Shown piece after piece: positions 41,507-54,778 of a stretch of 64,000 bases of DNA. How positions within the stretch are numbered: position 1 is the stretch's first letter; each line of letters starts with the position of its first letter. Source of the DNA: Escherichia coli (lineage in GTDB: Bacteria; Pseudomonadota; Gammaproteobacteria; Enterobacterales; Enterobacteriaceae). Below the pieces are notes generated by a model that saw only the letters and a program-made list of their open reading frames with translations, did not search any database and was not told the DNA's origin. The position numbers and the translations under genes are program-made. The stretch is taken from assembly GCF_030013595.1 (NCBI RefSeq), contig NZ_CP122768.1. The stretch is one strand, 5' to 3'.

Positions 41507-43885
41507 ATGTCCAACAATGGCTCGTCACCGCTGGTGCTTTGGTATAACCAACTCGGCATGAATGATGTAGACAGGGTTGGGGGCAAAAATGCCTCCCTGG
41601 GTGAAATGATTACTAACCTTTCCGGAATGGGTGTTTCCGTTCCGAATGGTTTCGCCACAACCGCCGACGCGTTTAACCAGTTTCTGGACCAAAGCGGCGT
41701 AAACCAGCGCATTTATGAACTGCTGGATAAAACGGATATTGACGATGTTACCCAGCTTGCGAAAGCGGGCGCGCAAATCCGCCAGTGGATTATCGACACT
41801 CCCTTCCAGCCTGAGCTGGAAAACGCCATCCGCGAAGCCTATGCACAGCTTTCCGCCGATGACGAAAACGCCTCGTTTGCGGTGCGTTCCTCCGCTACTG
41901 CAGAAGATATGCCGGACGCTTCTTTTGCCGGTCAGCAGGAAACTTTCCTCAACGTTCAGGGTTTTGACGCCGTTCTCGTGGCAGTGAAACATGTATTTGC
42001 TTCTCTGTTTAACGATCGCGCCATCTCTTATCGTGTGCACCAGGGTTACGATCACCGTGGCGTGGCGCTCTCCGCCGGTGTTCAGCGGATGGTGCGCTCC
42101 GACCTCGCATCTTCTGGCGTGATGTTCTCCATTGATACGGAATCCGGCTTTGACCAGGTGGTGTTTATTACTTCCGCATGGGGCCTTGGTGAAATGGTCG
42201 TGCAGGGCGCGGTTAACCCGGATGAGTTTTACGTGCATAAACCGACACTGTCGGCGAATCGCCCGGCTATCGTGCGCCGCACCATGGGGTCGAAAAAAAT
42301 CCGCATGGTCTACGCGCCGACCCAGGAGCACGGCAAGCAGGTTAAAATCGAAGACGTACCGCAGGAACAGCGTGACATCTTCTCGCTGACCAACGAAGAA
42401 GTGCAGGAACTGGCAAAACAGGCCGTACAAATTGAGAAACACTACGGTCGCCCAATGGATATTGAGTGGGCGAAAGATGGCCACACCGGCAAACTGTTCA
42501 TTGTGCAGGCGCGTCCGGAAACCGTGCGCTCACGCGGTCAGGTCATGGAGCGTTATACGCTGCATTCACAGGGTAAGATTATCGCCGAAGGCCGTGCTAT
42601 CGGTCATCGCATCGGCGCGGGTCCGGTGAAAGTCATCCATGACATCAGCGAAATGAACCGCATCGAACCTGGCGACGTGCTGGTTACTGACATGACCGAC
42701 CCGGACTGGGAACCGATCATGAAGAAGGCATCTGCCATCGTCACCAACCGTGGGGGGCGTACCTGTCACGCGGCGATCATCGCTCGTGAACTCGGCATTC
42801 CGGCGGTAGTGGGCTGTGGTGATGCAACAGAACGGATGAAAGACGGTGAGAACGTCACTGTTTCTTGTGCCGAAGGTGATACCGGTTACGTCTATGCGGA
42901 GTTGCTGGAATTTAGCGTGAAAAGCTCCAGCGTGGAAACCATGCCGGATCTGCCGCTGAAAGTGATGATGAACGTCGGTAATCCGGACCGTGCTTTCGAC
43001 TTCGCCTGCCTGCCGAACGAAGGCGTCGGCCTTGCGCGTCTGGAATTTATCATCAACCGTATGATTGGCGTCCACCCACGCGCACTGCTTGAGTTTGACG
43101 ATCAGGAACCGCAGTTGCAAAACGAAATCCGCGAGATGATGAAAGGTTTTGATTCTCCGCGTGAATTTTACGTTGGGCGTTTGACTGAAGGGATCGCGAC
43201 GCTGGGTGCCGCGTTTTATCCGAAGCGCGTCATTGTCCGTCTCTCTGATTTTAAATCGAACGAATATGCCAACCTGGTCGGTGGTGAGCGTTACGAGCCA
43301 GATGAAGAGAACCCGATGCTCGGCTTCCGTGGCGCGGGCCGCTATGTTTCCGACAGCTTCCGCGACTGCTTCGCGCTGGAGTGTGAAGCAGTGAAACGTG
43401 TGCGCAACGATATGGGGCTGACCAACGTTGAGATCATGATCCCGTTCGTGCGTACCGTAGATCAGGCGAAAGCGGTGGTTGACGAACTGGCGCGTCAGGG
43501 GCTGAAACGTGGTGAGAACGGGCTGAAAATCATCATGATGTGTGAAATTCCGTCCAACGCCTTGCTGGCAGAGCAGTTCCTCGAATATTTCGACGGCTTC
43601 TCAATTGGCTCAAACGACATGACGCAGCTGGCGCTCGGTCTGGATCGTGACTCCGGCGTGGTGTCTGAACTGTTCGATGAGCGCAACGATGCGGTGAAAG
43701 CACTGCTGTCGATGGCGATTCGTGCCGCGAAGAAACAGGGCAAATATGTCGGGATTTGCGGTCAGGGTCCATCCGACCACGAAGACTTTGCTGCATGGTT
43801 GATGGAAGAGGGGATCGATAGCCTGTCTCTGAACCCGGACACCGTGGTGCAAACCTGGTTAAGCCTGGCTGAACTGAAGAAATAA
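41507..43885 (+). CDS. ppsA: phosphoenolpyruvate synthase
   Basis: 792-aa ORF recognised as PpsA. Confidence 0.97.
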
Positions 43886-43892
43886 AATAAAT

Positions 43893-43921
43893 ACCCGGCG
43901 GCGTTTTGTCGCCGGGTTTAT
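43893..43921. terminator. hairpin between convergent ppsA and fadK (likely bidirectional terminator)
   Basis: acccggcg-gcgttttgt-cgccgggt followed by ttta. Confidence 0.55.
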
Positions 43922-43941
43922 GTGATCCCCGAAGATGAAAC

Positions 43942-45588
43942 TTATTCAATCTCTTCACAGACATCCTGAGTTAATCGCCGCATAATATCTTTCCTTAACA
44001 AAAACTTTTGTATTTTACCTGAGGCAGTGCGAGGTAGTTTTTCGATTACCACGATATGTTCAGGATATTTATATTTCGCGACCCGTTTACGGCTAAAAAA
44101 AGTCACCACGTCTTCCAGCGATAATGAATGATGCGGCGCTTTCAGCACGACATAAGCGCATGAGCGTTCACCTAAACGTTCATCGGGCATTGCAATCACA
44201 CAGGCATCGTGAATTTTAGGATGCTGTAATAAAATATCTTCTACTTCACGGCTGCTAATATTTTCGCCGCCGCGGACAATAATATCTTTCTTGCGCCCGG
44301 TTATTTTTATATAGCCAGCCTCATCCATGCGGCAGAGATCGCCGCTGTAATACCAGCCTTCTTCATCCAGCGCACGGGCGGTTAATTCAGGTTCATCAAA
44401 ATACCCCATAAACACATTGGGGCCACGCGAGGCTTCTTCACCTTCGCAACCTGGCGGTAAGGTCTTGCGTGCGTCATCGACCACTTTAATCTCAACTCCT
44501 GCGGCAGCGTAACCATCGGTATGCATAAAGCGCGATAAAGGATCGTCGAGATTCACCACTGCGTGCGGCGAACTTTCTGTGGAACCATAAACACTTAATA
44601 ATTTAATGCCGCGCTGTTGGCATTCACGCGCCACTTTTTTGGGGATTGTGGTCCCGCCGCAAAGAAAGAAGCGCAGCGCTGAAAGGTCAGCGGGTTGTTT
44701 CTCCAGTAAATTCAAAAGATCATAGACAAACGGCGTTGCGCCGAGCATACAGGTGCAACGCTGCTGCTCAAGCAGCGCGAGACACGCATCAGGAGTGAAA
44801 ATATCTAACAACACGCTGCGAGCGCCAATTAAGAATGGTGCCGTTACGCCATGCAGAAAGCCCGTTGCATGACCAAGTGGCGCAGGCATCATAAAGACAT
44901 CCTGCCAGGTCAGATTCAACCGCGCGCAATAAGCCCGCTCACTGGCGAGAATATTGTTATGCGTTAGCATCACGCCCTTTGGCAGACCCTCGGTTCCGGA
45001 GGTAAACAGCACCGCGGCTAATTCATCGCCGTGGACCGTTATCGCCGTGGTCAGAGGAGTATTGTCGGCGATAATCTGACTTAATGAGAGGGAAGAGGTG
45101 GCGGGAGCCAGTTTGTCCACGCCGACAATTTGTTGTAGTTGTAGAAGCTGATTTTGCAGCGGCAGGATTAAATCTACCGGACGCGTTTGTTTAAACAACG
45201 TCGGTGCAAAGAACATTTTTGCCTGACACTTATTGAGTACCCATACCAGTTCTGCTTCCCGCCAGGAAGGCAACAGCGGTACGGAAACCGCACCGATTTT
45301 CAGGCAGGCAAGATAGATAACGGTAAATTCACACCAGCCAGGCAGTTGAAATGCGATACGATCGCCTGATTCAATACCCTTCGCTAACATCCAGTTTGCC
45401 AGACAGCTCGCGGCGTGATCGAGCGCGCTATAGGTGTACGATGCACCATGATTATCGACCACGGCAATTTTGTCTGGCATCGCACGAGCGGTCTGCTGCC
45501 AGTAATCGGCCAGCGAAGCATCGCCCCATAGCCCTTGCTGACGATACGCCGCACGACGTTGTTCGTAAAACGTTAATGTCACTTTCAT
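43942..45588 (-). CDS. fadK: short-chain acyl-CoA synthetase (anaerobic)
   Basis: ORF 43942..45642; recognised FadK/YdiD likely starts at the internal MKVTLTFYEQ (548 aa); AMP-binding motifs. Confidence 0.85.
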   Translation of the reverse strand: MKVTLTFYEQRRAAYRQQGLWGDASLADYWQQTARAMPDKIAVVDNHGASYTYSALDHAASCLANWMLAKGIESGDRIAFQLPGWCEFTVIYLACLKIGAVSVPLLPSWREAELVWVLNKCQAKMFFAPTLFKQTRPVDLILPLQNQLLQLQQIVGVDKLAPATSSLSLSQIIADNTPLTTAITVHGDELAAVLFTSGTEGLPKGVMLTHNNILASERAYCARLNLTWQDVFMMPAPLGHATGFLHGVTAPFLIGARSVLLDIFTPDACLALLEQQRCTCMLGATPFVYDLLNLLEKQPADLSALRFFLCGGTTIPKKVARECQQRGIKLLSVYGSTESSPHAVVNLDDPLSRFMHTDGYAAAGVEIKVVDDARKTLPPGCEGEEASRGPNVFMGYFDEPELTARALDEEGWYYSGDLCRMDEAGYIKITGRKKDIIVRGGENISSREVEDILLQHPKIHDACVIAMPDERLGERSCAYVVLKAPHHSLSLEDVVTFFSRKRVAKYKYPEHIVVIEKLPRTASGKIQKFLLRKDIMRRLTQDVCEEIE

Positions 45589-45644
45589 TTTGGACTCTCG
45601 AGACAGAACATCAGGCCCGAGATGCGGGCCTGTGGGATGCATGA

Positions 45645-45938
45645 TTAGCCGTAGCGAAAATCAATACCGAAGGTGCCTGCAGGATATTGCCACTGTTCGA
45701 GAATAGTGTTGCCGCACAGCACCCGACAGGTGCCGCACTCCAGACAACCGGCGGAATCGAAATGAATGTTTCCTGCGTCATCCTGCTTATAAAGTCCGGC
45801 AGGGCAAGCTTTCATTAATTTACGGAATTCATTGATATCGGGATTTGCCGCCAAAATGATATGCGGGTGGCCCTCATCAACATGGAATTTATTGACGCCT
45901 AATTTGATGTCGACGTTAACCGTAGCGTTCTGGCTCAT
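45645..45938 (-). CDS. ydiT: ferredoxin-like protein (FixX family)
   Basis: 97-aa ORF with a Cys cluster (CPAGLY…CLECGTCRVLC). Confidence 0.85.
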   Translation of the reverse strand: MSQNATVNVDIKLGVNKFHVDEGHPHIILAANPDINEFRKLMKACPAGLYKQDDAGNIHFDSAGCLECGTCRVLCGNTILEQWQYPAGTFGIDFRYG

Positions 45939-47224
45939 AGCGCGGTTGCTCCCTTAATGCCATCTTTCAGCAAGTTGATCAGTCCAATTTTCTTCGCGTG
46001 TCCCATGATCATTTTGCGTACCGGTTGGTTAGGTTTGCCGTCGATGGTGAACATCTCGTTCATGATGTCGGCGACCATTCGTGGGTATTGGCTAAACAGG
46101 CGCGGGTTTTCCATCAGCGCCGGGATCTTGCGGAAATGCTGCATATCGCGCATAACACAACTTTGTTCCAGCTCACGTTTGTATTGCGCCAGACTGCTGG
46201 CGGAGAAATCCGCGCGTTCTTTGGCGGCGATCACCGTTGTGGCGGCAGCCTGAGCCGATGCAATGGCTAAATCCATGCCGCGGACTGTAAAACCCAAATT
46301 CAGGCAGAAGCCTGCGGCGTCACCAACGATCATCACGCCCTCGTTAACCAGTTGCGGCACCATTGCCAGACCGCCTTCCGGCACCATATGCGCGGAATAT
46401 TCAAGCAGTTTGCCGCCGCTGATCAGCGGGCGAATGGCGGGGTGTTGTTTAAAATCTTCCAGCATTTGCGGCACGCTTTTTTGCGCATGGGCGATATCAC
46501 CCAATCCACAAACCAGCCCCAACGATACGGAATCATTGTTGGTATAGAGGAATCCGCCACCCATCAGGCCGTCCGAAGGGGAACCGGCAAACAGCCAGGC
46601 GGCACCTTCCTCGCCCGTAACATTAAAGCGATCGTTGATCTGTTCTGGTGTGAGGCCAATAACCTCTTTAACACCAACAGCGTAATGATGCGGATCGGAA
46701 GCGGGAACCATTCCCAGCGAGCGGCCAAGCATCGAGTTAACGCCATCAGCCAGAATCACCACATTCGCTTCGAGAATATCATCCCCGGCCTGCACGCCAG
46801 TGACCTTGTTTCCTTCACGAACCAGCGCATCGACACGAACGCCCGGGATAAACTGCGCGCCAGCCTGTTCGGCTTGATCCATCAACCACGGGTCCAGACG
46901 ATTACGCAATACGGTATAAGACGCGTGTTGCGGAACATCTGGTTGCTCGCGGTGAAAATCGAGGGTAACGGCACTCTCTTCGGTTAAGAAGGAGATTTTC
47001 TCGCGTGTGACCTTGCGTTCTACCGGCGCTGATGCTGCAAAGCCTGGAATGATCGCTTCAAGTGTGTGGGCATAAAGACGCCCGCCGGTCATGTTTTTAC
47101 ATCCGGCACTGTCGCCGCGTTCTATCACCAGGACATCCAGCCCGGCTCGCGCCATGACCAGTGCGGCAACGCTACCAGCAACGCCCGCACCGACCACAAT
47201 GGCATCAAATTTGTCATCCGACAT
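45935..47224 (-). CDS. ydiS: FAD-dependent oxidoreductase (FixC / ETF-quinone oxidoreductase-like)
   Basis: 429-aa ORF with N-terminal dinucleotide-binding motif (DAIVVGAGVAGSVAA); 4-bp overlap with ydiT. Confidence 0.85.
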   Translation of the reverse strand: MSDDKFDAIVVGAGVAGSVAALVMARAGLDVLVIERGDSAGCKNMTGGRLYAHTLEAIIPGFAASAPVERKVTREKISFLTEESAVTLDFHREQPDVPQHASYTVLRNRLDPWLMDQAEQAGAQFIPGVRVDALVREGNKVTGVQAGDDILEANVVILADGVNSMLGRSLGMVPASDPHHYAVGVKEVIGLTPEQINDRFNVTGEEGAAWLFAGSPSDGLMGGGFLYTNNDSVSLGLVCGLGDIAHAQKSVPQMLEDFKQHPAIRPLISGGKLLEYSAHMVPEGGLAMVPQLVNEGVMIVGDAAGFCLNLGFTVRGMDLAIASAQAAATTVIAAKERADFSASSLAQYKRELEQSCVMRDMQHFRKIPALMENPRLFSQYPRMVADIMNEMFTIDGKPNQPVRKMIMGHAKKIGLINLLKDGIKGATAL

Positions 47225-47279
47225 GCGTTATGCTCCCTTCCCGCTGCGTTTACAGCGGGAGATGTGGTTGAAAGGGGAA

Positions 47280-48218
47280 TTAGCGGCTCAACTGGCTAAT
47301 CAGGGCAGGGACGACTTTGTAGATATCGCCCACCAGACCGTAGTCGGCATAGTTGAAGATTGGCGCATTTTTATCTTTATTGATGGCGACAATCACTTTT
47401 GCGCCGTTGCCGCCAACCATATGCTGGATCTGCCCGGAGATCCCCAGCGTCAGGTAGAGATCGGATTTCAGCAACACGCCGGAGACACCGATATAACGTT
47501 CACGCTCCATCCAGTTCTCGCCTTCGGCAATTGGACGTGAACAGCCGACTTCAGCATTCAGCACCGCCGCCAGTTCGTGGACCATTTTCAGGTCATCCTG
47601 CGCTGCCAGACCACGACCGACGCCAACCACACGTTTTGCTTTGCTCAGGTCCACGCTGCTTGCCGCTTTCGCACGGCGTTCGCGACAGAGAATTTCATGA
47701 CGCGGGGCAACATAAGGTACCGTTTCTGTCGGGCACTGATGAGAGGTATCACTGGTGCACGGTTCCTGAACACCGGGCGCAAGGGTAATGATCGCCAGCG
47801 GGCTGTTGATCTTTTCCTGTGCGAACGCTAACCCGCCATACATCCGGTGTTCGGCGCAAATGTGACCATCGACAATATCCACCGCCGTGGCATCGTTCAC
47901 CAGCGCCGCATTCAGTTGCACACTTAACCGTGCTGCCAGAGCTTTACCGCGTTTCGTCGCGGCCAGCAGCAACATAGAAGGGTGTTTATCTTTCAGCAGG
48001 GCAGCAATGCTTTCGGCGTAATTTTCAGTACGTTGCAGCGCATCATTTTGCTCAAGAACATAAATACATTTTGGACCATAAGGCATAACTGCCTGCGCCT
48101 GGTCGGTATTTTGTACAATGGCATACACCTGTTGGCCCCATTGCTGCGCGCCGCTAAACAATTCAGCATAACGTTCAGGATTATCGCTAAAGACCCAGAC
48201 GCTGTTTAATTGACTCAT
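47280..48218 (-). CDS. ydiR: electron-transfer flavoprotein alpha subunit (FixB-like)
   Basis: 312-aa ORF recognised as YdiR. Confidence 0.85.
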   Translation of the reverse strand: MSQLNSVWVFSDNPERYAELFSGAQQWGQQVYAIVQNTDQAQAVMPYGPKCIYVLEQNDALQRTENYAESIAALLKDKHPSMLLLAATKRGKALAARLSVQLNAALVNDATAVDIVDGHICAEHRMYGGLAFAQEKINSPLAIITLAPGVQEPCTSDTSHQCPTETVPYVAPRHEILCRERRAKAASSVDLSKAKRVVGVGRGLAAQDDLKMVHELAAVLNAEVGCSRPIAEGENWMERERYIGVSGVLLKSDLYLTLGISGQIQHMVGGNGAKVIVAINKDKNAPIFNYADYGLVGDIYKVVPALISQLSR

Positions 48219-48237
48219 CGTTTCTTCTCCGTAGGCT

Positions 48238-49002
48238 TCAGTTCAGGGCTTTCTTCAGATGTTCCGCCAGCTCGGCAATGGCCTCCGGCGAATCGTTATC
48301 GAGAATGATGTGCTTACGTTCTGTTTGCGGCGGTACGCGAATGCTGGTCAGTTCAGCAAGTGGTGCGCTCTGGCTCCAGCCAATATCACTTGCCTGCCAC
48401 TGATTTACCGGTTTTTTACCCGCGCCGAGAATGGCTTTCATCGAAGGAATGCGTGGCACGTTAATATCGGAGGTGACGCAGAGCACGGCTGGAACAGAGA
48501 GTTCAATAACTTCAACATCATCTTCAAGCATGCGTTCAATCACCAGTGTATTGCCCTGACGCTGAATAGCACTCACTGCATTAATCACCGGAAGTTGCAG
48601 AATTTCTCCGACCAGCAAGCCAACCTGCTGGGCATAAAGGTCGCCGGAACCTTCACCAAAGATCAGTAAATCGAAGCCGATCTTTTCAACTGCTGCCGCC
48701 AGCGCCTTTGCGGTATCGAGAGGCAGTGCATGTTCAAGTTGCGCATCCTGCACCAAATACAGGCTATGCGGCCCGCGGGATAGCACGTCTTTACGCACTT
48801 TCGAGTTCTGCAACAATGAGCCGCCAATGGTCAGCGCGGCTATCTCATCGTCATCTGTTGCAATCTGGCTTGCAGCTTCAATGGCATTGAGATCGAACTG
48901 GCTGATTTTGGCGTCGGCATTGTCGAAATTCAGGGTATATTCTGGAGTGACAACAATGTCCTGTTCTTCAGGCACCAGCTTAAAGCAGGTTATTATTTTC
49001 AT
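48238..49002 (-). CDS. ydiQ: electron-transfer flavoprotein beta subunit (FixA-like)
   Basis: ORF 48238..49101; recognised YdiQ starts at the internal MKIITCFKLVPEEQ (254 aa). Confidence 0.85.
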   Translation of the reverse strand: MKIITCFKLVPEEQDIVVTPEYTLNFDNADAKISQFDLNAIEAASQIATDDDEIAALTIGGSLLQNSKVRKDVLSRGPHSLYLVQDAQLEHALPLDTAKALAAAVEKIGFDLLIFGEGSGDLYAQQVGLLVGEILQLPVINAVSAIQRQGNTLVIERMLEDDVEVIELSVPAVLCVTSDINVPRIPSMKAILGAGKKPVNQWQASDIGWSQSAPLAELTSIRVPPQTERKHIILDNDSPEAIAELAEHLKKALN

Positions 49003-49317
49003 GATTTCTCCTGTGAGTCGCATACGGAACCATCTCCGATGGAAGGTAAAAATGGCCTGAAAATAGTGTGCGATAGCGGTGCGGGGTTTTCGACGGAGCA
49101 AGCTGTTTTCCTTGCCAACAATCTTGCAAAAAAAATGCGATCGCTAAAACAAAAGTGCAATTTGCGGCAATATAGTTATTCCATGACCGTACAATCTTGC
49201 ATTCAGTGTAAATAATCTTGTTTAGCTCTCGCTAAACGCGGTTGTATAACCGCAATACACGCCGTATTTTATCCGGCATATATTGTTTTTGCTTGCTCAT
49301 GGAATAGGGAGGTTATC

Positions 49318-50229
49318 ATGTATCAACGCTGTTTTGATAACGCCAGCGAAACGCTGTTTGTCGCCGGTAAAACGCCACGGCTTTCACGTTTTGCATTTAG
49401 CGATGATCCAAAATGGGAGTCCGGACATCACGTTCATGACAATGAAACCGAGTTAATTTACGTCAAGAAAGGGGTAGCAAGGTTTACCATCGATTCTTCG
49501 TTATATGTCGCGCACGCCGATGACATTGTGGTGATAGAACGTGGCAGGCTGCATGCGGTGGCCTCTGACGTTAACGATCCGGCAACGACGTGTACCTGTG
49601 CGCTGTACGGCTTTCAGTTTCAGGGGGCTGAGGAAAATCAGCTACTGCAACCGCATTCTTGCCCGGTAATTGCCGCAGGGCAGGGAAAAGAAGTTATTAA
49701 AACCTTATTTAATGAGCTAAGTGTGATTTTGCCGCAAAGTAAAAATAGCCAAACATCTTCGTTATGGGACGCATTTGCCTATACGTTAGCAATTCTTTAC
49801 TATGAAAACTTTAAAAATGCTTATCGTTCGGAGCAGGGATATATTAAAAAAGATGTTCTGATAAAAGATATTCTTTTCTATCTGAATAATAACTATCGCG
49901 AAAAAATCACTTTAGAGCAGTTATCGAAAAAGTTTCGTGCCAGCGTCAGTTATATTTGCCATGAATTTACCAAAGAGTATCGCATTTCCCCTATTAACTA
50001 TGTTATTCAACGGCGTATGACGGAAGCGAAATGGTCACTCACTAATACTGAATTATCACAGGCAGAGATCTCCTGGCGTGTGGGTTATGAAAATGTCGAT
50101 CACTTTGCCAAACTGTTTTTGCGCCATGTCGGCTGTTCGCCCAGCGATTACCGCAGGCAATTTAAAAACTGTTTTGCGGAACAAGAAATCTTATCTGAAT
50201 TTCCTCAACCGGTAAGTCTTGCCGGATAA
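49318..50229 (+). CDS. ydiP: AraC-family transcriptional regulator
   Basis: 303-aa ORF with C-terminal AraC HTH; divergent from ydiQ. Confidence 0.8.
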   Translation: MYQRCFDNASETLFVAGKTPRLSRFAFSDDPKWESGHHVHDNETELIYVKKGVARFTIDSSLYVAHADDIVVIERGRLHAVASDVNDPATTCTCALYGFQFQGAEENQLLQPHSCPVIAAGQGKEVIKTLFNELSVILPQSKNSQTSSLWDAFAYTLAILYYENFKNAYRSEQGYIKKDVLIKDILFYLNNNYREKITLEQLSKKFRASVSYICHEFTKEYRISPINYVIQRRMTEAKWSLTNTELSQAEISWRVGYENVDHFAKLFLRHVGCSPSDYRRQFKNCFAEQEILSEFPQPVSLAG

Positions 50230-50271
50230 ATCTGGCGGCGCAGTTTGTTAAGAAGCTGCGCCGCCTGCAGA

Positions 50272-51423
50272 TTATTTGTTCTGATAATCTTTCAGGATCT
50301 GCCGACCCGCTACGTAAATCATAATTTCGTCTGTACCGCCGCCGATACGTTCACAACGGACATCACGCCAGAAGCGAGAGACGCGCGCCTCATCGGTATA
50401 GCCCAGACCGCCCATGATTTGAATCGCATCATCAATAACTTCCATTGCGGTACGTGCGCAGTACAGTTTTGCCAGCGCCGCGCTGGTGCGCAGTGACTGA
50501 TGCTGATCGGCTTGCCATGCCACTTTCAGCACCATGTTGCGCATGTTGTCGATCTTAATCGCCATCAGCGCCAGTTTTTCCTGGATCATCTGGTTATGAC
50601 CAATGGGCTTACCAAAAGCGATACGTTGGTTGGCATAGCGGGCGGCATCTTCAAAGGCACACTCGGCAAAGCCGGTGCTGCGCGCGGCGTTGATCAGGCG
50701 CTCCATCTCAAAGTTATACATCACATTGAGGAAACCCATTCCTTCTTCGCCCACCATGTCGCTCTCTTCAACTTCCACGTTGTCGAGATAGACTTCGCAG
50801 GTGCTGAGCATATGCCAGCCGATTTTATGCAGCGGGTTAATCTTAATGCCGGGCTTACTGGAGTCGACCCACCACAGGGTGAAGGCTTTTTTGGGATCTT
50901 TCGGTTCTGGATCGCGCGCCAGCACCAGCATATACGGGTACTCTTTCGCACCGGTAATAAAGGTTTTCTGTCCGTTGATGTAAACCTTGCCGTTTTTACG
51001 CGTGTAAGTGGTGGTGGCGCTGTTGTTATCTGAGCCTGCGCCTGGTTCCGTCAATGCCAGGGCATAGGCGGGATCACCCGTTTCCAGGGTGCTTTCCGCC
51101 GTTTTACGTAGCTGCTCTGCAGAACCGAAACGGCGCATACTGTGAATACATTGACCGTTGGTGATCAAAAATGCCGGGGCACCGCATTTTGACACTTCCA
51201 TCAGCGCCAGCATCTGGGTGACGTAATCCGCAGGGATGCCACCAAATTCTTCCGGCACGCCAAGCATAGAAATGCCGTTATCCGCCAGCGCCCGCATAAA
51301 CTCACGCGGGTATGTCCCGTTTTGATCGCAGGTGCGGAAATACTCTTCCGGGAAGTTGGTCGTAATCAACTCGCGAATACTGGCCAGCAGCAGTTCTTGT
51401 TCTTCAGTTAAAGAAAAATCCAT
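50272..51423 (-). CDS. ydiO: acyl-CoA dehydrogenase (CaiA-like)
   Basis: ORF 50272..51477; recognised YdiO likely starts at the internal MDFSLTEEQELL (383 aa). Confidence 0.85.
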   Translation of the reverse strand: MDFSLTEEQELLLASIRELITTNFPEEYFRTCDQNGTYPREFMRALADNGISMLGVPEEFGGIPADYVTQMLALMEVSKCGAPAFLITNGQCIHSMRRFGSAEQLRKTAESTLETGDPAYALALTEPGAGSDNNSATTTYTRKNGKVYINGQKTFITGAKEYPYMLVLARDPEPKDPKKAFTLWWVDSSKPGIKINPLHKIGWHMLSTCEVYLDNVEVEESDMVGEEGMGFLNVMYNFEMERLINAARSTGFAECAFEDAARYANQRIAFGKPIGHNQMIQEKLALMAIKIDNMRNMVLKVAWQADQHQSLRTSAALAKLYCARTAMEVIDDAIQIMGGLGYTDEARVSRFWRDVRCERIGGGTDEIMIYVAGRQILKDYQNK

Positions 51424-51436
51424 CATTATACTCCTG

Positions 51437-53032
51437 TTAATGAGCCGCTTCAGGCAGGACAAAACCCATCGCCGCATCGATAAATAATCTTTCGTCCATC
51501 AGTTTGAGTTCTGGCGAAATCACTGGGGTGAAATCCATTTTGTCGAGAATATCTTTTTGTAAATCGACGCCAGGGGCGATTTCGATTAAATGCAGGCCGT
51601 CTTCTTTCAGCGTGAATACTGCGCGCTCAGTGATATAACGAACATCCAGCCCTCGCTCGAGAGCGATTTTTCCGCTGAAAGTAATTTCCGGTAGTTCCCG
51701 AATAAATTTCTTCACCCGTCCTTCCTGGACGATATTTAATTTGCCGTCGGTAATTTCTGTTTTTAAACTGCCCGCAGTTAATGTGCCGCAGAAAACGATT
51801 TTCTTCGAAGTGGCACTGATATCAATAAATCCACCGGTGCCCATGATTTTACCATTGAATTTATGCACGCCGACGTTACCGTGCTGGTCGACTTCAGCAA
51901 AACTCAAGTAACAAACATCCAGACCGCCACCGTGATAAAAATCAAACTGGGACGTCATATCCAGAATGGCGCGGGTATTCACGTTCGCGCCAAAGGCGAT
52001 CCCCTGTGAAGTAATTCCGCCAATCGGACCTGTTTCTACCGTCAGAATAAAGTCATCAGCACAACCTTCTTCCCGGGCGACCAGGCCAATGCCGTCAGCA
52101 ATACCGACGCCGACATTCCCCACCGCGCCTTTGCGCATTTCGAATAATGCGCGCCGCGCAACTAATTTACGTTGGTTTAGGGGCAGGCTAAGTTTGGTGC
52201 TTTCATCAAGGGTGAAGTCACCAGAAATAAAGCGGTTAACCGGTGCACCGCCATACAGTTGGGTTTGATCCGGATCGACCACCACAATATCCACCAGATA
52301 ACCCGGAATACGGACAGATTTAGGATGCAGCGTGGCTTTCTTAACCATTTTCTGCACCTGCATCATCACAATACCGCCGTTATTGTGCACCGCCTGGGCA
52401 ATAACCAATGCGTCGAGATACATCACCTCATCTTCAAAAGTGGCGTAGCCTTCGCTGTCGCAGGTGGTAGCGCGAATGAAGGCAATATCTGGCGCTATCG
52501 CTTTGTAATAGAGATATTCTTTGTTTTCAAACTCGACCAGTTTAATCAGGTCTTCTTTAGTGACTTCATTCAGTTTGCCGCCTTGCTGGCGTGGATCGAC
52601 AAATGTTCCGATGCCAATATCACTAATAATACCAGGCTGGTGGGCTGCGGCGGCGCGTAAGGTTTGTGTAAGTACACCTTGTGGATAGTTATAAGCAATA
52701 ATTTTATTTTGTTCTGCGAGATCAGAAATACGCGGCGATTGTCCCCAGTGACCGCATAATGCCCATTTCACCAGACCTTCTTGCGCCAGCGGACTAATAC
52801 CGCGATCGGCGCGATCGCCAAGCCCTGTTGGACTAATAATCGATAAATTACGTGGCGTTTGAGTCTGTTTATATTTATCAGCAAGAGCAGTAATTAACGT
52901 GGTGGCTTCCAGAATACCGCCGCCAGCGCCTAACACACAAAGTGTTGCTTCGTCGGGAATATAATTCACCGCTTCCTGTGCCGACAGGACCGGCACTCGT
53001 CCATTAATACGAGGTGGTTTTACAGGTTTCAT
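51437..53032 (-). CDS. ydiF: fused alpha/beta short-chain acyl-CoA:acetate CoA-transferase
   Basis: 531-aa ORF recognised as YdiF. Confidence 0.85.
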   Translation of the reverse strand: MKPVKPPRINGRVPVLSAQEAVNYIPDEATLCVLGAGGGILEATTLITALADKYKQTQTPRNLSIISPTGLGDRADRGISPLAQEGLVKWALCGHWGQSPRISDLAEQNKIIAYNYPQGVLTQTLRAAAAHQPGIISDIGIGTFVDPRQQGGKLNEVTKEDLIKLVEFENKEYLYYKAIAPDIAFIRATTCDSEGYATFEDEVMYLDALVIAQAVHNNGGIVMMQVQKMVKKATLHPKSVRIPGYLVDIVVVDPDQTQLYGGAPVNRFISGDFTLDESTKLSLPLNQRKLVARRALFEMRKGAVGNVGVGIADGIGLVAREEGCADDFILTVETGPIGGITSQGIAFGANVNTRAILDMTSQFDFYHGGGLDVCYLSFAEVDQHGNVGVHKFNGKIMGTGGFIDISATSKKIVFCGTLTAGSLKTEITDGKLNIVQEGRVKKFIRELPEITFSGKIALERGLDVRYITERAVFTLKEDGLHLIEIAPGVDLQKDILDKMDFTPVISPELKLMDERLFIDAAMGFVLPEAAH

Positions 53033-53111
53033 TGTTAATTCCTGATACAGGTGTGATTTTCCCTACGCCAGATGGAGAATTAGCGCACAGAGACTCACGA
53101 AATATTATTGC

Positions 53112-53870
53112 TTATGCCTGATGTAAAATAGTTAATACTGTGCGCAAATCATTTACCGAGATTTGCCCTGGCGCAGAGGCTTTTTTTACCGCACCAAAAG
53201 TTGCCGCCGAGCCAAATACTTCACCAGCCAGACGAGAAATTACGCCAGTTTTTGCCATCGACATCGTGATGATTGGACGATCGGCATACTGCTCCTGCAT
53301 CTCCAGGGTCGCGGCAAGCAACGTCAGCACATCGCTGGTACTTTGCGGCATCAGCGCAATCTTAGGAATATCGGCGTCGAAGGACTGCATTTTGCGCAGA
53401 CGGGCAATGATTTCTTCGGCTTCCGGCGTTTTATGGAAGTCATGGTTGGACATGACAACTTTCACATCATGCGCGTGGGCGTAGGCGACGGTTTCTTTAA
53501 CCTGATCATCGCCGGTAAATAACTCCAGATCGATCATATCAACCAGGCCACTATCGATGGCTGCACGATTGAGTGCAATATATGCCTCGGTGGAAATCGC
53601 CTGCTCGCCGCCTTCTTTGGCACTGCGGAAGGTAAACAGCAGCGGTTTTTCTGGCATGGTTTCACGGAGAATTTTTGCTGCCGCCATGACAGACTCCACA
53701 TTGGAGAGGTCGGCATAGTGGTCCACACGCCATTCCAGAATATCAAAGTCCGCTTCACGATAGGCGAGAGCTTCGGATTTCACGCTGGCGATATCTTTCG
53801 CCATCAGCGAGACGATGATTTTAGGTGCGCCCGTACCAATGACGAGATCTTTTACAGTTACGGTTTTCAT
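53112..53870 (-). CDS. aroD: 3-dehydroquinate dehydratase (type I)
   Basis: 252-aa ORF recognised as AroD. Confidence 0.95.
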
Positions 53871-53900
53871 TTTTTACCCTTTCTGCACGCGGTCAGCCTG

Positions 53901-54767
53901 TCAGGCACCGAACCCCATGACCTGTTTAACATATTCCAGAGGGAAATCTTTGCCAGTCCATAACGTGAACTGTTCAGCCCCTTGCCACAACAACATGCCG
54001 TATCCATCAATCGTTTTGCAACCAGCTTGTTGCGCCTGCTGCAATAACTTCGTCATATGCGGGTTATACACGCATTCAGTGACCAGAAGTCCCGGATGTA
54101 ACAGACTGATATCATTAACCAATGATTCATTCTCAAGGGGTTTCATACCCACTTTTGTGCCATTGGTTAAAATGTCGGCGGAAGCCAGGGCTTCAGCAAA
54201 GGCTTGCTGATCGGCGAGATCGGTGACCGTGACGACACAATCGGTGTTTTCGTTAACCCGCTGCGCGAAGGCGAGGGCTTTATCGAAGAACTCATCCCGA
54301 CGGTTAAAGAGTTTAATTTCTTTTAAACCTTCAATTGCCCCCTGCGCGCCAATCGCCGTTGAGGCACCTCCGGCCCCTAACAGCACCATCGTTTTGCCTT
54401 TGATATCAAAACCGCTCTCTTTAATGGCGCGAATATGGCCCGTGCCGTCGGTGTTATAGCCACGCAGATAGCCATCATCATTAACGATGGTGTTGATGGC
54501 ACCCACCAGTTTGGCCGCTGGCGTTAATTCATCAACATATTCACACGCCAGTTGTTTGTTCGGCATTGATACACCAGTTCCGCGCATTTTGAGGGCTTTT
54601 AATCCTTCAATTGCTCCGGGAAAACTATCGTTATCCACTTCAAAGGCCATATAGGTAAATGGCAATCCCGCTTTTTCTAAGGCTTTATTCTGCATTTCAG
54701 GCGATAAACTGTGGCGGATGGGATAGGCCATCAGCCCAATCAATTCGTATTTTGCGGTAACATCCAT
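53901..54767 (-). CDS. ydiB: quinate/shikimate dehydrogenase (NAD(P))
   Basis: 288-aa ORF recognised as YdiB (AroE paralogue). Confidence 0.9.
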
Positions 54768-54778
54768 AATTAACTCCT

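Follow-up and report, generated by a model that had tools for sequence, protein, structure and literature searches.

The caffeate respiration of Acetobacterium woodii runs on the CarABCDE proteins: the coenzyme A (CoA) transferase CarA, the priming ligase CarB, and the enoyl-CoA reductase CarC with its electron-transferring flavoprotein (ETF), CarDE. Escherichia coli has a loop of the same kind in caiTABCDE and fixABCX, which convert carnitine to gamma-butyrobetaine, and FixAB is reported to be required for this reduction (Walt and Kahn 2002, as cited in PMC9329746). Here we compare with these systems an E. coli cluster of eight genes, fadK-ydiTSRQ, ydiP, and ydiO-ydiF. It occupies positions 43942 to 53032 of a stretch of 64,000 nucleotides (contig NZ_CP122768.1 of RefSeq assembly GCF_030013595.1), which we call the window. 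With substrate and direction read from gene context, we propose, at a rough probability of 0.45, that the cluster belongs to a YdiP-controlled, Cai-like loop in which shikimoyl-CoA would be reduced with electrons from quinol.

The net reaction proposed here has a counterpart in a gut bacterium. Eggerthella lenta has a periplasmic flavin "shikimate reductase" that, according to Little et al., takes shikimate to hydroshikimate and serves as a respiratory electron sink. That enzyme, one secreted flavoenzyme resembling fumarate reductase, works on the free acid, whereas the Ydi route would be cytoplasmic and CoA dependent and would use unrelated protein families. According to a preprint (bioRxiv 10.1101/2022.12.26.521950), Sutterella wadsworthensis grows better with formate and shikimate and reduces this enoate to hydroshikimate; both E. 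lenta and Sutterella make hydroshikimate in culture, and reductase substrates and products are found in faeces.

A redox core related to CaiA-FixABCX

Pfam and NCBIfam profile searches back the domain assignments that an earlier note, made from the sequence alone, had given to all eight genes, the ETF, FixC, and FixX families included. YdiF (51437-53032, minus strand) is a fused family I CoA-transferase whose own solved structure is PDB 2AHU, and YdiO (50272-51423, minus) belongs to the CaiA-like acyl-CoA dehydrogenase/enoyl-CoA reductase family. ydiQ (48238-49002, minus) and ydiR (47280-48218, minus) encode the beta (small) and alpha (large) ETF subunits, the latter with the ETF FAD domain PF00766. 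YdiS (45935-47224, minus) is a FixC-like FAD protein with the ubiquinone-binding domain (PF21162) of ETF:quinone oxidoreductase (ETF-QO) and scores 973 bits with NF007450, while YdiT (45645-45938, minus) is a FixX-like ferredoxin with a single complete [4Fe-4S] cysteine set (C45, C65, C68, and C71). fadK, also named ydiD (43942-45588, minus), encodes an AMP-forming acyl-CoA ligase of 548 amino acids that passes the NCBIfam equivalog NF004758 at 1084 bits. On the opposite strand, ydiP (49318-50229, plus) encodes an AraC-family regulator with a cupin sensor domain and a helix-turn-helix domain. Coordinates and profiles thus agree with the gene content of the earlier note, as they do with the tight coupling that it saw between ydiT and ydiS, which overlap by 4 bp, and between ydiR and ydiQ, which are 19 bp apart. 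The remaining spacers measure 55 bp (ydiS-ydiR), 13 bp (ydiO-ydiF), and 56 bp (ydiT-fadK).

The proteins were aligned against those of the K-12 cai/fix region. Identities of 45-63% link the five redox proteins to E. coli Cai/Fix paralogues (YdiT/FixX, 63%; YdiS/FixC, 61%; YdiQ/FixA, 55%; YdiO/CaiA, 48%; YdiR/FixB, 45%), which confirms the resemblance to CaiA-FixABCX proposed from sequence inspection. YdiS and YdiQ also pass the FixC and FixA subfamily cut-offs in NCBIfam, the best model for YdiT is FixX, and the CaiA model NF002885 is the second-best NCBIfam match of YdiO, at 452 bits against a cut-off of 540 bits. The mirroring appears to hold for this redox core and to be one of analogy for the remaining parts. 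FadK and CaiC are only 29% identical. BLAST detected no similarity between YdiF and CaiB, as they belong to transferase families I and III, respectively, and neither a CaiD (crotonase-type dehydratase) nor a CaiT (BCCT antiporter) homologue is present in the cluster. By family, a CoA-transferase (YdiF) and an ATP-dependent ligase (FadK) are both there. If the genes directly upstream of ydiF, described below, are counted in, both systems comprise a priming AMP-ligase, a CoA-transferase, a dedicated transporter, an enoate-creating dehydratase, and a pathway-specific regulator. The regulator, however, is of AraC type here and CaiF there; major facilitator superfamily (MFS) transporters take the place of CaiT; and the dehydratase AroD acts on the free acid, whereas CaiD acts on the CoA ester. 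AroD and the MFS proteins YdiN and YdiM would therefore be no more than functional analogues of CaiD and CaiT.

Ranking of solved structures placed bifurcating and canonical ETFs in mixed order, and residue-level markers were therefore used to class the ETF. In bifurcating EtfB proteins the "zipper" reads DGDTAQ, with Thr in 100% of 216 sequences, while canonical AMP-binding ETFs have DDDxNQ (PMC8958531). In HMMER alignments with CarD, LctB, Clostridioides difficile EtfB, and the Paracoccus and human ETFs, YdiQ has DLYAQQ at this position, which matches neither motif and is invariant across the family. Domain I of YdiR has AALVNDAT in place of the TGLTADCT of bifurcating ETFs, a motif that alignment places on T94 and T97 of Rhodopseudomonas palustris, so that the Thr pair is replaced by Ala and Val; in the ETF of that species, exchange of these two Thr for Ala leads to AMP in place of the bifurcating FAD (PMC8958531). 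YdiT has five cysteines (C75 in addition to the four of the cluster set), compared to four in E. coli FixX; it lacks the three N-terminal cysteines of the two-cluster EtfX from Thermotoga maritima (7KOE_D), and its cysteines suffice for one [4Fe-4S]. The zipper, Thr-pair, and cysteine features are constant in E. coli FixAB and FixX, in the Sutterella proteins, and in two uncultured relatives (loci L055 and L057). A near-universal ETF interface Arg is present in YdiR and its Sutterella counterpart and is Met in FixB and in both uncultured relatives. In YdiO the catalytic Glu occupies the IVD/LCAD-type helix-G position (E241), with Gly at the position of MCAD E376; both features are common to CaiA.

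These markers provide good support for YdiQR and YdiST as a probable non-bifurcating, one-cluster chain made of an ETF and a split ETF-QO. Such a chain has the cofactor order of the mitochondrial-type system, in which electrons pass from a dehydrogenase to the ETF FAD, one [4Fe-4S], a second FAD, and quinone, and YdiS has the quinone domain to match. It differs in that ETF-QO is one polypeptide whereas YdiS and YdiT are separate, in that YdiQ lacks the AMP-site signature of group 1 ETFs, and in that the electron flow proposed here would be the reverse. With the bifurcating FixABCX/EtfABCX complexes of Azotobacter vinelandii and T. maritima (7KOE) the Ydi proteins share the four subunits, the membrane-associated FixC with its quinone site, and the small FixX, but YdiQ, YdiR, and YdiT fail the three markers of zipper, Thr pair, and second [4Fe-4S]. 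The Car system (6FAH) has the same loop logic and, like the proposed one, a plant-derived enoate as substrate, and CarD is the best solved-structure match of YdiQ (88 bits). CarDE, however, is a bifurcating two-FAD ETF that is fed by NADH and has no FixCX, while YdiQR lacks bifurcation motifs and has two quinone-linked proteins of FixCX type as partners. With Cai/Fix the cluster has in common both the unusual DLYAQQ motif and a single-cluster ferredoxin.

Conserved linkage to quinate/shikimate genes

Directly upstream of ydiF and on the same strand lie four further genes (53112-57485). aroD (53112-53870, minus) encodes a type I 3-dehydroquinate dehydratase, ydiB (53901-54767, minus) a quinate/shikimate dehydrogenase, and ydiN (54779-56044, minus) and its paralogue ydiM (56271-57485, minus) MFS transporters. 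A scan for YdiO with one genome per species gave 45 loci, from Escherichia to Yersinia and Dickeya plus two Sutterella species, onto which the window proteins were mapped. The pattern scan was not exhaustive: Salmonella and Klebsiella are absent from it, yet Salmonella has YdiO (P0004), and such absences are not counted as absence of the gene. The Enterobacterales loci, moreover, share ancestry and are not independent samples. Wherever the contig reaches, ydiN-ydiB-aroD-ydiF-ydiO is contiguous and co-oriented, in Escherichia, Citrobacter, Yersinia, Serratia, Dickeya, and both Sutterella species alike. YdiO retains 93% identity in Yersinia and 80-84% in the betaproteobacterial Sutterella.

In S. 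wadsworthensis a segment of 21 kb holds orthologues of all 12 E. coli genes, rearranged and with identities of 51-83% (ydiM, 52%; ydiN, 64%; ydiB, 76%; aroD, 68%; ydiF, 83%; ydiO, 80%; ydiP, 51%; ydiQ, 60%; ydiR, 51%; ydiS, 63%; ydiT, 67%; fadK, 59%). There the fadK orthologue follows that of ydiT, the ydiM orthologue adjoins the gene for the YdiP-like regulator, and the flank beyond ydiO is unrelated. The 24 Sutterella-type metagenome contigs keep the full gene set wherever they are long enough.

Two uncultured relatives draw the hydroaromatic genes into the ETF operon itself. L055 is a single tight operon in the order MFS-YdiF-YdiO-EtfB-EtfA-dehydroquinase I-FixC-FixX-ligase, with the dehydroquinase gene 2 bp past etfA; its first gene is a ydiN orthologue (46%), and its ligase, encoded after the ydiT counterpart, is a FadK orthologue (48%). 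L057 reads MFS-YdiF-YdiO-EtfB-EtfA-shikimate dehydrogenase-dehydroquinase I-FixC-FixX and adjoins a gene for a YdiP-like regulator (45%). Here too a ydiN orthologue comes first (70%), the ydiB orthologue (77%) is inside the ETF operon, and the aroD orthologue stands between it and fixC. In a third locus (L058) the ydiB orthologue is directly upstream of ydiF-ydiO, and in a fourth (L138) the order is AroD-YdiB-MFS-YdiF. YdiF relatives of 60-89% identity are found repeatedly beside genes for dehydroquinase, shikimate dehydrogenase, or a shikimate-kinase-family protein, the last in L140 and L141. In L059, L060 (Sedimentibacter), L136, and L137, the YdiF relative (62-65%) is accompanied by a MaoC dehydratase, an ApbA-type reductase, a small VOC-fold protein, and a type II dehydroquinase, which is not homologous to type I. 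Two unrelated dehydroquinase families beside one transferase family are hard to explain except by a shared function, and the pattern suggests that the conserved unit also takes in aroD, ydiB, ydiN, and ydiM. The boundaries first drawn for the cluster, at the fadK stop and the ydiF start exactly, are thus too narrow. Hydratase, hydroxyacyl-CoA dehydrogenase, and thiolase genes were found in none of the approximately 15 cluster architectures examined.

Sister modules of Desulfovibrio type (L052 and L056) and of Escherichia albertii (L054) combine a YdiO-like dehydrogenase (63-68%) with a family III CoA-transferase, an MFS transporter, and an ETF; those of Desulfovibrio type further carry FixCX, a metallo-beta-lactamase-fold protein, an AMP-ligase, and a chemoreceptor. 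Shikimate-pathway genes are absent from these three loci. With partners varying in this way, loops that are fed by a transporter and run as "acid in, reduced acid out" seem to be the general setting of the YdiO/CaiA subfamily. One protein 74% identical to YdiO (P0027) is encoded by an orphan gene, and its context is uninformative.

A 4144-bp metagenome contig in ENA (P0186) encodes a predicted protein of 651 amino acids in which a shikimate-dehydrogenase N-terminal domain is joined to a CoA-transferase domain with 83% identity to YdiF. Loss of aroD may have left a YdiB-YdiF fusion here, or else the protein is an artefact of gene calling.

A common operator and two putative transcription units

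Alignment of the ydiP-ydiQ spacer from nine genera reveals three invariant blocks built on (T)GCAAGAT, and the motif recurs upstream of ydiN. The ydiQ/ydiP operator (49121-49222, minus strand) has AACAAGAT at 49222-49215 and TGCAAGAT at 49201-49194 and again at 49128-49121. That of ydiN (56169-56270, minus strand) has TGCAATAT at 56270-56263, TGCAAGAT at 56249-56242, and TGCAATAT at 56176-56169. In both the sites are spaced by 21 and 73 bp, and the proximal site is 126 nt (ydiQ) or 132 nt (ydiN) from the ATG. The composite pattern CAANAT-N15-CAANAT-N67-CAANAT has just two occurrences in the window, one ahead of ydiN and one ahead of ydiQ (0 of 100 shuffles), and in related genera it is likewise found only upstream of these two genes. 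The proximal ydiQ site is invariant from E. coli to Dickeya and Yersinia. A pair of TGCAAGAT sites spaced by 21 bp is also present beside the YdiP-like gene of L057 and in the ydiN/ydiQ spacer of Sutterella, while neither the spacer upstream of ydiF nor the region upstream of ydiM has a TGCAA-type site. The octamer TGCAAGAT taken alone is not significant (7 matches versus 3.3 expected), and weight is placed only on the three-site layout and its conservation.

The domains of YdiP and the 21-bp-spaced direct repeats at two promoters fit the layout of an AraC/XylS-family regulon. YdiP is thus the candidate binder of the operator and, most simply, would be the common regulator of two putative transcription units, ydiN-ydiB-aroD-ydiF-ydiO, with ydiN as first gene, and ydiQRST-fadK; ydiM may be a further member. 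Between the two units, convergent ydiP and ydiO are separated by a hairpin with a perfect 10-bp stem, GGCGGCGCAG/CTGCGCCGCC (50234-50265, unstranded), which was read directly from the sequence and is likely a two-way terminator. The one operon suggested in the earlier note is better taken as these two units, between which lie opposite-strand ydiP and this hairpin. A GC-rich hairpin is also present in the ydiT-fadK spacer (45612-45632, minus strand; minimum free energy of -17.7 kcal/mol, z = -2.1), with no U-tract after it. A promoter and terminator scan of 43700-53300 gave counts no higher than in shuffled sequence, and only individual conserved features were therefore used. No FNR box (TTGAT-N4-ATCAA, up to 2 mismatches) was found in 49003-49317, 53033-53111, or 56045-56270, and the window-wide count of such boxes is not above chance.

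Two regulatory features are seen in relatives. In Yersinia (L022, 3763-4665), and also in Serratia, Dickeya, and Brenneria, a LysR-family regulator gene lies on the opposite strand between ydiM and ydiN, in a spacer of approximately 1.5 kb. The ydiP-ydiQ spacers of the same four genera have a conserved CRP-like element, ATGAT-N6-TCACA, which is not in E. coli.

A proposed route for shikimate reduction

In the proposed route, YdiN, and possibly YdiM, would import quinate or shikimate. YdiB and AroD, whose interconversion of quinate, dehydroquinate, dehydroshikimate, and shikimate is established, would lead from quinate to shikimate by way of 3-dehydroquinate and 3-dehydroshikimate; the latter and shikimate itself are cyclohex-1-ene-1-carboxylates, that is, enoates. 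YdiF would then make the CoA thioester of the ring acid, and YdiO would reduce the ring C1=C2 bond with menaquinol electrons. For this, the CaiA-type flavoprotein YdiO would exchange electrons with the one-FAD ETF YdiQR, which in turn would communicate with the membrane quinone pool via YdiT (one [4Fe-4S]) and YdiS (FAD and quinone site). By analogy with CaiB/CaiC and CarA/CarB, YdiF would release hydroshikimate (3,4,5-trihydroxycyclohexanecarboxylate) by shifting CoA from the product thioester to the incoming free acid, and FadK would prime the loop with ATP. The cluster as first described would be half of the two-operon YdiP regulon, and the whole would act as an anaerobic electron sink or respiration, parallel to the conversion of carnitine to gamma-butyrobetaine. 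The turnover of C4-C8 fatty acyl-CoAs would be secondary to this.

The direction is suggested by the acids that YdiB and AroD handle. An alpha-hydrogen is missing from both quinate and dehydroquinate, and both dehydroshikimate and shikimate are 2-enoates to begin with, so that an acyl-CoA dehydrogenase fold could only reduce them. The enoyl-CoA/acyl-CoA couple, at approximately -10 mV, can take electrons from menaquinol, at approximately -74 mV. The name of acyl-CoA oxidation module, which the earlier note had used, is hence not one that we retain, given the wider hydroaromatic unit, the operator common to ydiN and ydiQ, the missing partner enzymes of beta-oxidation, and substrates that could only be reduced. 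That Sutterella, which has the full gene set, reduces shikimate is independent physiological support for the shikimate-reducing reading.

A broader form of the proposal would be a cytoplasmic, CoA-dependent quinate/shikimate respiration in E. coli, many other Enterobacterales, and gut Sutterella, served by a 12-gene YdiP regulon (ydiM, ydiN, ydiB, aroD, ydiF, ydiO, ydiP, ydiQRST, and fadK), in which menaquinol electrons reduce shikimoyl-CoA or dehydroshikimoyl-CoA via a third kind of ETF, neither bifurcating nor AMP binding. In this full extent we regard it as possible, though on balance we lean slightly against it. The cluster as first described is already known, whereas its link to aroD, ydiB, ydiN, and ydiM, the operator, and the proposal of a shikimoyl-CoA reductase were not found in the searchable literature.

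Competing explanations

The earlier note left the native substrate and the direction of electron flow unsettled, in agreement with a 2022 review (PMC9329746). Its link to anaerobic fatty-acid oxidation matches the annotation in the literature (use of fatty acids or butyrate), but reviews call the experiments thin. This link underlies the main rival, which we consider unlikely, although less so than the others: the cluster would serve an anaerobic beta-oxidation of short- and medium-chain fatty acids (butyrate to decanoate) by supplying its first oxidation, in which FadK and YdiF activate the acid, YdiO oxidizes the acyl-CoA, YdiQR, YdiT, and YdiS pass electrons through quinone to nitrate or other acceptors, and FadIJ or FadBA finish, the adjacency of aroD, ydiB, and ydiN being incidental. 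Much of what favors it also weighs against shikimate reduction. fadK supports anaerobic growth on fatty acids in a fadD mutant, fadK and fadD are jointly required for such growth, and FadK prefers, and is most active on, C6-C8 acids (PMC9329746); in Salmonella, ydiD reportedly serves butyrate utilization, and the ydiQRSTD operon is tied to, and reportedly needed for, anaerobic butyrate use; and ydiO/ydiQRST has been described as an anaerobic acyl-CoA dehydrogenase complex. Our literature search found no paper in which quinate or shikimate is linked to ydiF, ydiO, or ydiQRST of E. coli. aroD is, besides, the biosynthetic dehydroquinase of E. coli and may lie here for other reasons. A single block transfer could account for the Sutterella copy, and between the fadK-like and ydiP-like genes of that copy (L051, 13462-19060, CP068055.1) are encoded two flavin reductases with twin-arginine translocation (Tat) signals, TRRQLF and TRRHLF, together with a response regulator and a histidine kinase whose sensor is of periplasmic-binding type; such a Tat flavin reductase, rather than YdiO, could be the shikimate reductase of Sutterella. 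The modules of L061, Desulfovibrio desulfuricans, and E. albertii have no hydroaromatic genes, the operator pattern was defined after inspection of the data, and the part of a YdiP chromatin immunoprecipitation sequencing study available to us, text and supplements, does not mention ydiQ, ydiN, ydiM, ydiF, aroD, or ydiB. The rival draws further support from the joint decay of the cluster genes with other anaerobic-respiration genes in extra-intestinal Salmonella, from the short-chain acyl-CoA dehydrogenases that are the closest solved structures of YdiO, and from the resemblance of YdiF to Staphylococcus aureus FadX in NCBIfam. The 2022 review, however, finds experimental evidence for YdiQR lacking and anaerobic induction of fadK not confirmed by transcriptomes, and neither FadR nor CRP controls fadK (PMC9329746). 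Beta-oxidation also leaves unexplained the dehydroquinase and shikimate dehydrogenase genes inside the ETF operons of L055 and L057, the operator layout common to ydiN and ydiQ, the lack of the three later enzymes across the architectures, and the lack of an FNR box in the promoter regions. In view of the substrate read from context, the shared ancestry of the loci, the Tat reductases, the role of aroD, and the fatty-acid and butyrate genetics, we set shikimate reduction at about 0.45 and hold fatty-acid oxidation to be the less probable.

The same gene context would also fit an oxidative salvage, in which hydroshikimate or a related saturated ring acid from other gut bacteria is imported, esterified to CoA by YdiF, and oxidized by YdiO to shikimoyl-CoA, with electrons going to quinone and the resulting shikimate or dehydroshikimate feeding aromatic biosynthesis via YdiB, AroD, and AroK/L. 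The acyl-CoA couple would make oxidation by ubiquinone or demethylmenaquinone favorable, hydroshikimate is made in culture by E. lenta and Sutterella, as noted above, with reductase substrates and products present in faeces, and the shikimate-kinase-family genes of L140 and L141 would find a place; we nonetheless think salvage improbable, as the cluster-bearing Sutterella was seen to reduce shikimate and not to oxidize hydroshikimate, the Cai and Car loops, which are reductive, have just this arrangement of a CoA-recycling transferase with a priming ligase, and a dedicated quinate dehydrogenase would not be needed. It is very improbable that YdiO is a general enoyl-CoA reductase of fermentative chain elongation, reducing crotonyl-CoA and longer enoyl-CoAs with reduced ETF or ferredoxin. 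Metabolic engineering does use YdiO in this way, as the enoyl-CoA reductase of a reversed beta-oxidation, and the next-best NCBIfam families for YdiO, YdiR, and YdiQ after Cai/Fix are the Clostridium acryloyl-CoA reductase proteins AcrC, AcrA, and AcrB, but a review calls the role of YdiQRST there unclear, and the transporter, dehydroquinase, and shikimate dehydrogenase partners would be left over. Butyrate is not a known product of wild-type E. coli. Hardly more credible is that the genes are neighbors by descent only, with no joint function. The reported targets of YdiP are cold-shock genes and not its neighbors, PtrR binds inside ydiF, and fadK may have a separate role (PMC9329746); the set has nevertheless been kept through at least three gene orders and across proteobacterial classes, with coding regions that overlap or nearly abut and two promoters of common operator layout. 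Least probable of all, to a degree close to negligible, is an electron-bifurcating FixABCX/EtfABCX-type complex that splits NADH between quinone (or enoyl-CoA) and a low-potential ferredoxin or flavodoxin: gene order, subunit number, and the FixC and FixX models agree with it, and the bifurcating CarD and C. difficile EtfA are the best solved-structure matches of YdiQ and YdiR, but all three residue markers contradict it and the interface Arg is not conserved across this family.

The literature search likewise found no published assay of YdiF or YdiO on hydroaromatic CoA esters. YdiF is reportedly tied to lactyl-CoA formation, to go by titles only.

About a dozen E. coli core genes have stood here for more than 20 years with no settled function, ydiB among them with no known physiological role, and ydiO/ydiQRST has been cited for both fatty-acid oxidation and reversed beta-oxidation. 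If the shikimate-reducing loop is real, one pathway would account for all these genes, and CoA-dependent enoate reduction of the Cai/Car kind would gain a new member. Quinate and shikimate, plentiful in the gut owing to dietary chlorogenic acids, would join the electron acceptors of enterobacteria, the shikimate respiration described recently would have a second enzymatic route unrelated to the first, and the NAD-dependent quinate dehydrogenase YdiB would gain a physiological role. A side activity would then lie behind the long-standing "anaerobic beta-oxidation" label of ydiO/ydiQRST, the gene losses of extra-intestinal Salmonella in this cluster would be read differently, and metabolic engineers would do well to note that the native substrate of YdiO would not be a fatty acyl-CoA.

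The locus and its flanks

An 11-kb query around the cluster matches 5425 of 5426 complete E. coli genomes and is at least 80% covered in 5348; the window is core chromosome. Gene starts are the RefSeq starts of the best match, NZ_CM149870, compared with a program-made list of open reading frames. Three frames extend further upstream. That of fadK reaches 45642 (45589-45642; 566 instead of 548 amino acids), where it would start 2 nt past the ydiT stop and take in the spacer hairpin; that of ydiO (51424-51477; 401 instead of 383) would overlap ydiF by 41 nt; and that of ydiQ (49003-49101; 287 instead of 254) has a TTG start.

The aroD-ydiF spacer (53033-53111, minus strand) is 79 bp here, compared to 142-144 bp in other E. 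coli. The missing 65 bp, at 53099-53107, lie between two direct repeats of CGAAATATT and include a GC-rich hairpin, CGGCGGGGGAGGATATTCCCGCCG. The deletion junction is present in none of the 5426 complete genomes, while 5328 have the undeleted left junction, and two genomes that match at 100.0% identity still have the 65 bp. The loss could be a rare natural (slippage) deletion or an assembly artefact, and it might alter read-through from aroD into ydiF. Gene loss is seen in other strains. E. coli E69 (L047, CP089930.1) has apparently lost everything between ydiF and ppsA, and in Enterobacter sp. EA-1 (L046) ydiO and fadK are fragmented and the aroD match is weak, which suggests that its cluster is decaying.

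Past ppsA, in the 56-bp convergent spacer with fadK, the short GC hairpin CGGCGTTTTGTCGCCG (43899-43914, plus strand) is the probable ppsA terminator. The flanking genes ydiK, ydiJ, and menI are as in K-12, and the small RNA genes RprA (58077-58184, minus strand) and rydB (63789-63849, plus strand) reach the Rfam gathering score.

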